Shown: piece by piece, positions 1,475 to 30,313 of the stretch
Layout of the letters: each line of letters begins with the position of its first letter
How positions within the stretch are numbered: the stretch's first letter is position 1
Assembly: GCA_963706595.1 (NCBI GenBank)
Contig: OY970166.1
Coordinates: 4,320,001 to 4,384,000, forward strand
Origin: an uncultured cyanobacterium
GTDB lineage: Bacteria > Cyanobacteriota > Cyanobacteriia > Cyanobacteriales > Nostocaceae
DNA length: 64,000 nucleotides
Reading direction: 5' to 3'
Translations under genes and position numbers: made by a program
The notes under the pieces: generated by a model
What the model was told of the DNA's origin: nothing
Seen by the model: the letters and a program-made list of their open reading frames with translations, nothing else
Database searches by the model: none

Positions 1475-1595
1475 TGACACACTTCAAAAACTGTCCTGGT
1501 AGATATAGGAACTCCTATCTAATTTTTGTGGGCGTAGCCTGCGCTATGCGCTGACAATCTCGACGTAACACAAAAAGGTTATTCCCCACTCCCCA

Positions 1596-1835
1596 GAAGA
1601 AGCAGGGGCGCACCGGAGCAGGGAGCAAGGGGGAGTTAAGAGGCAGGGGCGCAGGGTGCAGGGTGCAAGGGGGAGTTAAAAGGCAGGGGCGCAGGGTGCA
1701 GGGTGCAAGGGGGAGTAAGAAATTATTTTAAAACTTCCGGTTACTTAGCAACCATTCCTCTTCTCTCCTGCACCCTGCCCCCTGCCCCCATTCTTCTTCT
1801 CCCCTGCCCCCTGCACCCTGCACCCCTGCTTCTTC
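1596..1835. repeat. Inverted heptamer-repeat element (GCAGGGG arm / CCCCTGC arm) without a gene
   Basis: Ends GAAGAAGCAGGGG...CCCCTGCTTCTTC; flanked on both sides by CCCCACTCCCCA; internal ~40-bp direct duplication. Confidence 0.8.
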
Positions 1836-26943: not shown

Positions 26944-27825
26944 TTATGGTTGATTGTATTCGGGATTTCCCAGGTTGAAAAGGAATGGCACACCGCCTTT
27001 GGATTCATTACCCATAACGAGGACTCTAGGCATCTGAGAGCCGCCATTTCTCCAAGCTTCAATTGCTTCTTTTTGCAGAACTAACTGCCCACCTTGGGCT
27101 TTGAGAGTCTCTGCTAAGAGTTTTTGGGCTTCGGCTCTACCCTTGGCGCGATTCACATCCGCCTGAGCTTGTTGTTCGGCTTCCCTGGCTATATAAACGG
27201 CTCTTTGCGCTCGCTGTTCAGCTATCTGTTTTTCTTCTACAGCTTTGGCAAATTCTGGCGAGAAATTCAAGTCAACTACGCTAGTATCTAGCACAATTAT
27301 CCCATATTTAGCCAGGCGATTGCCCAAAGCAAAATCAAAGTCTTCTTTTAATTCACTCCTTTTGGTAATTGCTTCTTCTACTGTTCTTCTAGCAGCAGCG
27401 ATTTTAAATGCTTCCTGTGTCTGAGGAGCAATGATTTTTGAGACAATATTTGCTAAAGTTCCTTGCTTTCTTCTTACCTCAACTACCTGTGTGGGGTCAA
27501 GGCGAAAGTTAATCGCAAATCTTGCTGATAAATTTTGCAAGTCCTTGGTAGAACTTTCGGCTGGGACTTCAAATTTTTGTACCGTCAAATCATACACATC
27601 AACTACCGACACCAGGGGTGGTTTAATGTGAATACCTTCTAGTAGCGCACCATCTCTAGCTTTACCTAAGATGCTGATGACTCCTGCTTGTCCTGGGTTG
27701 AGAATAACAAAGGAATTTAGTCCGACGAGGACAATGAGTGCTAACACAATTCCAAAAACTGTGGTTTGCCAATTCCCAAATTGCTGACTTTTCAAGGTTC
27801 TATCTCCTTTTGCATCTTTAGGCAA
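26944..27825 (-). CDS. Prohibitin / SPFH domain protein; start may be TTG 27795
   Basis: N-terminal TM, STKDLQ, FSPEFAKAVEEKQIAEQ. Confidence 0.9.
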   Translation of the reverse strand: MPKDAKGDRTLKSQQFGNWQTTVFGIVLALIVLVGLNSFVILNPGQAGVISILGKARDGALLEGIHIKPPLVSVVDVYDLTVQKFEVPAESSTKDLQNLSARFAINFRLDPTQVVEVRRKQGTLANIVSKIIAPQTQEAFKIAAARRTVEEAITKRSELKEDFDFALGNRLAKYGIIVLDTSVVDLNFSPEFAKAVEEKQIAEQRAQRAVYIAREAEQQAQADVNRAKGRAEAQKLLAETLKAQGGQLVLQKEAIEAWRNGGSQMPRVLVMGNESKGGVPFLFNLGNPEYNQP

Positions 27826-27857
27826 CTCCTGTACTATGGTGACACGTCCTCGGTAAA

Positions 27858-28466
27858 AAGAGGCAGGGGGGCAGGGAGCAGGGGGCAGGGGAGAAGAGGC
27901 TGGGTGGCGGGGAGAAGAGGCAGGGGAAAAGAGGCAGGGGAGCAGGGAGCAGGGGGCAGGGGAGAAGAGGCAGGGTGGCGGGAATTAGCGTTTTAACAGC
28001 CAGGGTGTTGGGTTGTTGATAATAGTTACTAGAATGCTTAAAATGCGATTGTAGGCTCCATAAAGTTCTCTACCTGTTTCCACATCTAAATAATTACATT
28101 TAACCGCGAACTTAAGCCAAGTTTGCGTTTCTGCTGCCTCGGACTCAGAATCACTTAGTTTAGCTACAAAAGCTGCTTCATAACGACGCTTTCTCCATGC
28201 TTCTGCAAGATTTGCACAAACAGAACGAGATGAACGACGAATTTGATCTATCAATGAATACTTCTCTTCTACAGGAAACTTCTTTGATAATTCAAAAATT
28301 TTCATGGCAACATCAAATGCCATTTTGTAAACTTCCAAGTCTTCATGACTTTTAATTGGTTCTTTTTCCATGTTCCCTGCTACTTTTTTTACCTATCTTA
28401 CCCCCGCTCCTTGCCCCCCTTGCTTCTTCTCCCCCCTGCTCCCTGCCCCCTGCCCCCCTGCCTCTT
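27858..28466. mobile_element. Putative element: inverted heptamer-repeat arms enclosing a four-helix-bundle gene
   Basis: Left arm 27858-27984 (GCAGGGG-type); right arm ~28372-28466 (CCCCTGC-type); outer 19 bp are perfect inverted repeats. Confidence 0.6.
27985..28371 (-). CDS. Four helix bundle protein (23S rRNA IVS protein / Avd-like family)
   Basis: DLEVY, FPVEEKYSL.DQIRRSSRSVCANLAE, E..ETQ.WL. Confidence 0.9.
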   Translation of the reverse strand: MEKEPIKSHEDLEVYKMAFDVAMKIFELSKKFPVEEKYSLIDQIRRSSRSVCANLAEAWRKRRYEAAFVAKLSDSESEAAETQTWLKFAVKCNYLDVETGRELYGAYNRILSILVTIINNPTPWLLKR

Positions 28467-28498
28467 ATTGTGGTAACATCAGTGTCACGCAACCGTAA

Positions 28499-30313
28499 AT
28501 GACTGTGGCTATAGCATTTAAATCTGTTCAGGCATCAAAAAGACGTAGGCATTCAGTACATCCTCTTCAGCGCTTGCTTGACTACGGACACGAGTATCGG
28601 CAACAAATTTGGCTGGCTATTGTTTGTTCTATCCTGAATAAACTTTTTGATTTAGCACCACCAGCACTAATTGGGATTGCGGTGGATGTGGTAGTTCAGC
28701 AGCAGGATTCGATCATTGCTCAGTTTGGTGTTAAAGATGTCTTTGGGCAATTTTTGATTCTGTCTCTACTCACTGTGATTACTTGGATTTTAGAATCATT
28801 TTTTGAATATCGCTATAAGTTATTGTGGCGTAACTTAGGGCAGAAGATTCAGCATAATTTACGTTTGGATGCATACAAACACCTGCAAGAGTTGGAATTG
28901 GCTTATTTTGAGGAACGCAGCACAGGGGGGTTAATGTCTATCCTCAGTGATGATGTGAACCAATTAGAGCGTTTTCTAGATGTGGGCGCAAATGACATCA
29001 TTCAAGTAATCACCACTGTGGTAATTATTGGCGGGGCATTTTTTGTTTTGGCTCCTAGTATAGCTTGGATGGCAATTTTGCCGATGCCTTTTATTCTCTG
29101 GGGTTCGGTAGCTTTTCAGAAGTTGTTAGCACCACGTTATGCTGATGTCCGCGAAAAGGTAGGTTTACTCAATGGCCGTTTGTCAAATAATCTGAGTGGA
29201 ATCACTACGATTAAGAGTTTCACGGCTGAGGAGTATGAAGCCGGACGTTTAGAGTTAGAAAGTCTAGCTTATAAACAAAGTAACTCGAAAGCGATCGCAC
29301 TGTCTGCGGCTTTTATTCCGTTGATTCGGATGTTGATTTTAATCAGTTTTACAGCCTTACTCCTATTTGGTGGTATGGAAGCAGTGGCTGGGAGAATGTC
29401 TGTAGGCGCTTACAGTGTATTAATATTTTTAATCCAGCGTTTACTTTGGCCTTTAACTAGGTTAGGCGATACCTTTGATTTATATCAACGGGCGATGGCT
29501 TCTACTAATCGGGTGATGAATTTGTTGGATACTCCTTTTGCAATTCATCCCGGAAACATCGCTTTACCTGTGGATGTTGTGCGGGGGGAAGTGGAGTTTC
29601 ACAATGTCAGTTTTGCTTATCAAGATAGATTACCAGTGATGGAAAATCTGTCTTTGCGTGTGACCGCCGGAAATACAATTGCAATTGTGGGTTCTACTGG
29701 TTCGGGTAAAAGCACTTTAGTTAAACTTTTATTGCGGTTGTATGAGGTAAAATCTGGGAAAATTACCCTAGATGGGATTGCATTACCAGATTTAAATTTA
29801 CGGGATTTGCGGCGCTGTATTGGTTTGGTGAGTCAGGATGTATTTTTATTTCATGGTACGGTGGCGGAGAATATTGCTTATGGCAGCTTTGATGCTAGAG
29901 AATCAGAGATCATTACGGCGGCTAAGGTGGCTGAGGCGCATGAATTTATTATGGAACTGCCCCAAGGTTATGAGACAATTGTGGGGGAGCGTGGTCAAAA
30001 GTTATCTGGTGGACAACGACAAAGAATTGCGATCGCACGTGCAATACTCAAGAATCCGCCAATTTTGATTTTAGATGAGGCTACCTCGGCGGTGGATAAT
30101 GAAACGGAAGCGGCTATTCAGCGATCGCTCGAACGGATTACAGTAGATAGAACTACCATTGCGATCGCTCATCGTCTTTCTACTATCCGTAATGCTGATT
30201 GTATTTATGTCATGGAGCATGGGAAATTGATAGAATCAGGAACCCATGAGCAATTACTGGATAAAGACGGTATTTATGCAAGCCTCTGGCGTGTCCAAAG
30301 TGGCTTAAGATAA
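28499..30313 (+). CDS. ABC exporter, fused permease + ATPase
   Basis: 6-TM domain, [28 protein letters not shown]. Confidence 0.95.

Follow-up and report, generated by a model that had tools for sequence, protein, structure and literature searches.

A four-helix-bundle gene between inverted heptamer arrays as a probable mobile cassette of cyanobacteria

A small gene for a four-helix-bundle protein, enclosed by inverted arrays of heptamer words between two host genes of an uncultured cyanobacterium, very probably forms a mobile unit together with its arms. Our preferred reading, to which we assign a probability of roughly 0.55, is that the cassette spreads sideways by means of these arms, and that the protein binds its own repeat word and serves as a specificity factor both for the cassette and for gene-less hairpins. 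That gene and arms move as a unit had been proposed in the initial annotation of this DNA, and among relatives the unit is seen to be gained, lost and replaced.

The cassette and its protein

The window, that is, the whole stretch of 64,000 nt analysed, belongs to the genome designated here G000. The features that the argument needs are the following.

1595..1835, plus strand: gene-less hairpin carrying the arm words of the cassette, with a core of about 50 nt
26944..27825, minus strand: prohibitin-like gene (SPFH/Band_7) of the host flank, possibly starting further in
27833..27838, minus strand: putative host -10-like hexamer directed toward the prohibitin gene, outside the insert; proposed from its conservation in relatives, the scanner having made no call
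27852..28466, minus strand: whole insert of 615 nt, gene and both arms, delimited by comparing the alleles of G003, G021, G026 and G029 with that of G000
27855..27982, plus strand: downstream arm of the gene, built of GCAGGG[AG] and GCAGGGG[AG] units that make up a higher-order repeat of 35-36 nt
27985..28371, minus strand: four-helix-bundle gene, PF05635 / TIGR02436, 128 aa, with residues 112-113 being S-I, the 7-mer type
28372..28398, minus strand: purine-rich short leader with an AGGGA ribosome-binding-like motif, as read from the sequence
28399..28466, minus strand: upstream arm of the gene, C-rich on the plus strand and G-rich in the transcript; the outermost 19 nt mirror 27858-27876
28471..28479, plus strand: putative host extended -10-like motif directed toward the ABC gene, outside the insert; likewise proposed from conservation in relatives, the scanner having made no call
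28499..30313, plus strand: host flank, ABC exporter with membrane and ATPase domains

The layout first described for this locus, a 128-aa gene boxed by inverted heptamer arrays between divergent genes, is borne out, with the ORF (27985-28371, minus strand) and both arrays in place and the Band_7/prohibitin and ABC exporter genes pointing away from each other. The outer 19 bp (27858-27876 and 28448-28466) are indeed a perfect inverted repeat, which does not extend beyond 19 nt, and a longer pairing of 40 nt, at 90%, joins 27855-27894 to 28430-28469. The suggestion that the arms could pair with the gene looped out agrees with the predicted fold of the transcript strand, in which a single long stem made of both arms encloses the ORF (-239.7 kcal/mol, z -5.5, 0/20 shuffles). 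The arms mix 7- and 8-nt units within the 35-36-nt higher-order unit, and the copy number of the downstream arm, G-rich on the plus strand and C-rich on the transcript, varies among genomes. In G002 the left arm has grown to more than 20 copies of a 35-36-nt unit, running up to an assembly gap (L065:900-1640). Both arms (28399-28466 and 27855-27982) also contain at least four G3+ runs with short loops, and a G-quadruplex could rival the stem on the G-rich strand.

A promoter scan of the locus returned one site against 1.0 expected, and a search of Rfam gave a single chance-level match, with none near the gathering score. Of 23 RNA runs, all consisting of contigs, four were compared with the locus; the cassette interior is matched in X1 and X9 by long pieces and in X13 and X16 by short ones, these contigs giving neither ends, strand nor level and DNA carry-over being uncontrolled. 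Three arm-to-arm RNA joints (27962-27968 to 28427-28433) were considered as traces of excision and rejected, as hairpins without a gene, from other parts of the genome, explain them best. The 19-nt inversion was likewise rejected as a transposon end: the outer 19-mer occurs 52 times genome-wide (21 + 31), so it is not a unique terminal repeat, and exact flank inversions of at least 19 nt surround 13 of the 4406 crudely called ORFs of G000. Taken singly, the window locus is only mildly beyond chance, and it is for this reason the family-wide enrichment of arms that carries the case.

The protein clearly belongs to the PF05635 / TIGR02436 family (108.6 bits against a cut-off of 33.8, and 98.7 against 24). 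Its predicted structure consists of four helices (pLDDT 95.5) and matches 2GSC (TM 0.83) and also 2RLD, with Avd far behind; both PDB entries hold five chains, and by homology the 128-aa protein is most likely a pentamer. The cassette protein is not itself an Avd, since the bAvd and DivGenRetAVD profiles stay below their cut-offs (21.3 against 40 bits and 20.4 against 80). No transposase, nuclease or reverse transcriptase (RT) domain is recognisable in the protein, whose profile matches are PF05635 and a weak bAvd and whose fold is all-helical. No RT gene was found among the ORFs within about 6 kb of the cassette, and the five RT matches in the genome all lie at least 270 kb away. Values of dN/dS between 0.04 and 0.14 in 12 of 14 pairs (of the other two, one is without silent change and one is saturated) indicate that the ORF is under purifying selection.

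The one other family member of the genome above the cut-off (L002, G000 C1:2228251-2228565) has no arms and served as an internal control. It is acidic, forms a long branch in the protein tree, is fixed in place across the genus, where it directly precedes another ORF, and has lost the conserved basic motif R..S...N.AE; it is apparently domesticated. Elsewhere in the family, the four-helix ORFs of L129, L137, L222, L293, L302, L308 and L310 carry, at two recurring sites, insertions of 7-10 codons that keep the frame and resemble tiny mobile palindromes.

Gain, loss and replacement among relatives

The gene does not hold a fixed syntenic position. Of the 11 genomes of the genus, 5 carry the complete cassette (G000, G004, G008, G009 and, across an assembly gap, G002, whose second partial copy at that gap was left out of the site counts), and at the corresponding site in other genera the gene is absent from 19 of 19 loci, several of which have other heptamer arrays there. 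Four of the 11 have lost the gene and kept arm remnants: in G001 and G006 the right arm is reduced to 9 nt, in G010 short pieces of both arms flank another element (on two contigs), and in G005 the left arm is kept and followed by a deletion. G007 shows a larger deletion at the site, and G003 has the spacer found in neighbouring genera, which is the ancestral state. The four-helix gene is often broken in relatives.

In gaining the cassette, the site exchanged an unrelated spacer of about 50 nt for it, and comparison with the alleles of relatives reveals no target-site duplication. Two conserved -10-like motifs bracket the insert and, judging from the same alleles, stay with the host genes. The window cassette is therefore not a MITE, and an identity as MITE or IS was rejected on these grounds and because gene-less alleles keep pieces of the arms. 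It is also a single copy, with no near-identical further copies in G000.

How did the cassette reach its present distribution? The silent differences between the gene of G000 and four counterparts number 0/121, 4/120, 2/122 and 9/115, where 17.3, 16.9, 14.3 and 21.9 would be expected from host genes after correction for codon class and GC3; in the comparison with 0/121, the neighbouring genes differ at 33/258. In three genome pairs, cut into 52, 50 and 38 chunks, the gene shows the lowest divergence of all, and in the fourth it lies below all 31 chunks; all four tests share G000, and Poisson P values overstate the effect. SNPs resume 7-18 nt beyond the right arm, and a gradient of co-conversion, which we looked for in the flanks, was not found there. 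The same silent-site deficit appears at five other armed sites; it is missing at three armed site clusters and at the armless orthologue.

Replacement is most directly visible at the L059/L120 site, where one genome carries the protein type of the window and three carry another, the two cassettes having unlike arm words and proteins 31% identical, within flanks that show 6-13% silent differences (6-7% for L059 against L120). At other cassette sites of the sister genomes, G000 often has a gene-less hairpin instead, at two sites one of another word. The low silent divergence relative to neighbouring genes, together with unrelated cassettes at one site in close genomes, argues that gene and arms likely spread laterally, exchange within the arms and replace one another. 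Ordinary recombination also moves alleles here, as is seen from mosaic flanks and from a gene-less allele common to two non-sister genomes.

Some copies travel by other means. One-armed four-helix genes are passengers at the right end of ISL3-like elements, the family name being read from the element ends (L066-L072, L076-L078, L081-L083; seven copies in G030 and three in G163). A MITE with ends of about 25 nt and target duplications of 8-9 nt carries two different four-helix cassettes (L079, L080, L101, L102 and L109, in genomes G095, G003 and G005). An end of that MITE family also precedes an ORF near G000 C1 5289981, presumably dihydroorotase-like. Multi-copy genomes as proof of self-mobility were accordingly rejected, the examined cases being IS or MITE cargo. 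The epithet 'transposase-less' first given to the cassette thus does not apply to every copy, some being carried as cargo.

What distinguishes the family as a whole is the recurrence of the arms. An exact inversion of at least 12 nt flanks the gene at 67 of 97 family loci and direct repeats at 9 of 97, the 97 being those of 103 distinct, non-independent loci with enough flank, 7 armless orthologues included. Among the 69 of 80 close relatives with enough flank, 50 have inverted arms and none direct repeats, with a mean of 18 for mismatched pairings, and the G-rich arm stands upstream in 50/50 of those armed. The background over ORFs genome-wide, taken with a slightly different measure, is 72/4406, so the check on arm enrichment among relatives comes out in favour of the cassette. 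The 79 loci of the close relatives group into 57 neighbourhood clusters, and none stands beside the prohibitin-ABC pair; the arm word follows the clade in the protein tree, and arm pairs stay matched across 70-90% protein identity and all 57 neighbourhoods.

Two variants of this arrangement may be mentioned. At L039, L043, L047, L051 and L055 a four-helix cassette between two genes, which by their motifs look to us like cas6 and cas4, diverges like its hosts and seems vertically kept. Genes of the GxxExxY type (PF13366, PD-(D/E)XK) are enclosed by inverted arms of 8-9-nt words in two of three cases (L205 and L204, at G000 C1:3754787-3755134 and 4632015-4632362, with stems of 18 and more than 30 nt). 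They form a parallel cassette type with a nuclease-fold gene, and the abundant 8-mer arrays of G000 resemble their arms.

Repeat words, hairpins and protein types

The words of the cassette belong to the cyanobacterial heptamer repeats (STRR). G000 holds 227 arrays of the cassette's word family, mostly intergenic, and its close array pairs face inward in 24 cases and outward in one, most with a common core of about 50 nt. These pairs correspond to a dispersed hairpin without a gene, about 100 nt long, whose GCAGGG arms enclose a conserved, asymmetric core; G000 has about 46 core copies, and the hairpin is often nested in CCCCACT arrays. A survey of empty sites at 30 hairpin loci, with approximate categories, gave 10 loci without the core, 4 without anchors, 7 common to G000 and 3 uninformative or absent with other sequence changes; a clean insertion was seen at L175 only, where the hairpin interrupts an array of another word when compared with G000 C1 near 1569400. 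The hairpin core was considered as a deletion product of the cassette and rejected, as it has no real resemblance to the cassette interior and matches it nowhere over more than 9 nt. The hairpin may overlap small dispersed repeats already described.

We compared protein type with word count in 151 family genomes, counting triple-word matches. The 19 carriers of the window protein type (at least 85% identical, one a 65-aa fragment) have a median of 78 matches to their own word against 2 elsewhere, with within-genus comparisons at 9:1; for the other word the same carriers show 10 against 2 and 5:5. The second protein type, in 24 genomes, gives 35.5 against 1 and 11:1 for its own word, and 7.5 against 2 and 7:5 for the cross word. 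The cassette arms themselves add a few counts; at a threshold of at least 50 matches, which is beyond the supply of the arms, the matched combinations give P of 4e-5 and 1e-3 and the crossed ones 0.54 and 0.21, kin being non-independent. Within the genus of the window, carriers have 35-181 matches and non-carriers 18-49 (P 0.012), and the lowest counts (18, 23 and 25) belong to the three genomes with short arm remnants and no gene of this type. Exceptions are numerous, with at least 50 matches in 13 of 132 genomes lacking the protein type and fewer than 50 in 9 of 19 possessing it, and G000 has about ten abundant words, yet one armed four-helix gene. From genome sequences, then, the protein type is linked to its own word genome-wide, and the link is word-specific, statistical, without direction and subject to many exceptions.

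The length of the word may be reflected in the protein itself. Residues 112-113 match a repeat length of 7, 8 or 9 in 107 of the 111 loci (out of 121) that have a clear period, under a post-hoc rule drawn from these same loci: I113 goes with 7-mers and G113, when a non-glycine precedes it, with 9-mers; all others go with 8-mers. When residues 105-122 are left out of the tree, 9 changes of period, 7 of the code and 10 of the two jointly are counted, or about 6 that coincide, and support for this tree is weak. N-terminal columns also correlate with the period, and linkage of gene and arms can mimic such a rule. A code for repeat length at residues 112-113 is possible.

Mechanism, alternatives and known systems

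What could carry the cassette into new sites? We propose that the protein forms a five-subunit ring like those of 2GSC and 2RLD, which would bind single-stranded repeats, much as Avd binds nucleic acid, and direct its own cassette and the gene-less hairpins into existing repeat sites. Catalysis would be borrowed, either from a host recombination or repair route or from an enzyme acting in trans, because the protein lacks a recognisable transposase, nuclease or RT domain. In RNA, the paired arms probably insulate the ORF, much as in the intervening sequences (IVS) of 23S rRNA. We lean slightly toward the prediction that the protein binds its own word; that it has a causal role in the spread of the repeats falls somewhat short of even odds. 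A wider and more tentative proposal, which we hold to be rather doubtful, casts the PF05635 proteins as master genes of a mobile class that has no transposase, in which each pentamer would read one 7-9-nt word, home its own cassette and seed the heptamer arrays that cyanobacterial genomes hold by the hundreds. Helix-4 residues 112-113 would then set the period, homing would proceed into existing hairpins across species, and the 23S rRNA IVS would be one special landing site. Against the preferred reading, gene-arm linkage can produce a protein-word match at the level of the locus by co-inheritance, and word-rich genomes may simply offer more landing sites.

In the leading alternative, unlikely as we consider it, the ORF is inert cargo in a hairpin spread by host recombination between arrays, IS or MITE, the word match reflects co-travel and word-rich genomes catch more cassettes. 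The copies riding in ISL3-like elements and a MITE, the freely recombining flanks and the gene-less hairpins, which show polymorphism of their own and abound where the protein is missing, are all expected under such passive carriage. An inert ORF would hardly be under purifying selection, however, nor keep matched arms over the observed range of protein identity and neighbourhoods; the fixed orthologue has lost its arms together with the conserved basic motif, and it is the arm-remnant genomes without the gene type that have the lowest word counts of the genus.

A regulator useful to the host, binding the repeat in leaders and trailers, its own included, tuning stability or translation, with alleles that pass between species by ordinary recombination and are then spread by selection, is improbable. 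The mostly intergenic position of the arrays and the single armed copy facing hundreds of sites in G000 would suit a regulator, as would the reported effect of heptamer repeats on promoter regulation in Nostoc, for which a binding protein was postulated (bioRxiv 10.1101/2022.06.06.494920). Such usefulness is difficult to reconcile with a gene repeatedly lost in the genus, often broken in relatives and found at unrelated sites, and with cassettes of unrelated words replacing each other.

Still less probable is a role confined to RNA, in which the arms pair in transcripts, RNase III cuts them and the insert becomes tolerable, the protein not reading the repeat at all. The same family has the same stem-around-ORF layout in 23S IVS, one of which is excised by RNase III in vitro (PMC4990558), and both the fold of the cassette and the fixed polarity of its arms fit this picture. 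Any inverted repeat would suffice for such insulation, though, leaving the tandem words, the link to protein type and the genome counts unexplained; moreover, the insert lies between outward-facing promoter-like motifs, so that presumably no host transcript needs to cross it. Finally, two independent arrays landing on either side of an ordinary small gene might be conceived in a genome with 227 such arrays, where several housekeeping ORFs also have long flank inversions, and this is very improbable given arms at 50/69 and 67/97 loci against 72/4406 and given that gene and arms come and go together.

The preferred reading, mobility through arms whose word the protein recognises, may be set against known systems. 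The cassette works like RAYT-REPIN and is built like an ORF-bearing IVS, and it departs from the defining feature of each, as it does from those of Avd and of MITEs. With the ORF-bearing 23S IVS (S23p / PF05635) it shares the protein family, a terminal stem enclosing the ORF and a sporadic distribution, which in the IVS has been ascribed to horizontal transfer (PMC4990558). It differs in lying between protein genes and not in rRNA, in arms made of tandem 7-9-nt words, in its dozens of sites and in the purifying selection on its ORF, where reductive evolution was reported for that of the IVS (PMC4990558). As in RAYT-REPIN (PMC3337134), a short low-copy gene under purifying selection is flanked by its own repeat, with one protein type per repeat type and many gene-less hairpins, the correspondence here being statistical and with exceptions. 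Unlike RAYT-REPIN, the cassette lacks an HUH/Y1 transposase and repeats a non-palindromic word in tandem; its gene seems to move between sites and to be replaced, and the coupling to genome counts is looser.

Avd, of the diversity-generating retroelements, is a pentamer that binds nucleic acid. The cassette protein has a related four-helix fold (PDB 4DWL; PMC10053308; Foldseek E 0.036, TM 0.67), falls below both Avd profile cut-offs and has no adjacent RT with template and variable repeats. Like Nezha (PMC3184786) and other cyanobacterial MITEs, the cassette is small and hairpin-forming, with sites filled in some relatives and empty in others, and some copies of the gene do lie inside a MITE; the window cassette differs from MITEs in lacking both a unique terminal repeat and a target duplication and in having replaced host sequence. 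The heptamer arrays described in PMC4692102 and PMC4679880 are, like those studied here, intergenic and tandem and often form close inverted pairs, their origin and carrier being left unexplained. Here the word is tied to a protein family, a link that neither text makes in the parts considered, where the term 'helix bundle' is also absent. In the literature searched we found no description of the gene-plus-arms unit.

The cassette joins two open questions, the function of the PF05635 proteins and the origin of the intergenic heptamer repeats of filamentous cyanobacteria, and the pairs of protein and word are specified exactly, as is a swap of two residues. If the proposed mechanism is true, it would represent a new way for selfish DNA to spread and a small natural family of proteins whose recognition of repeats can be tuned.
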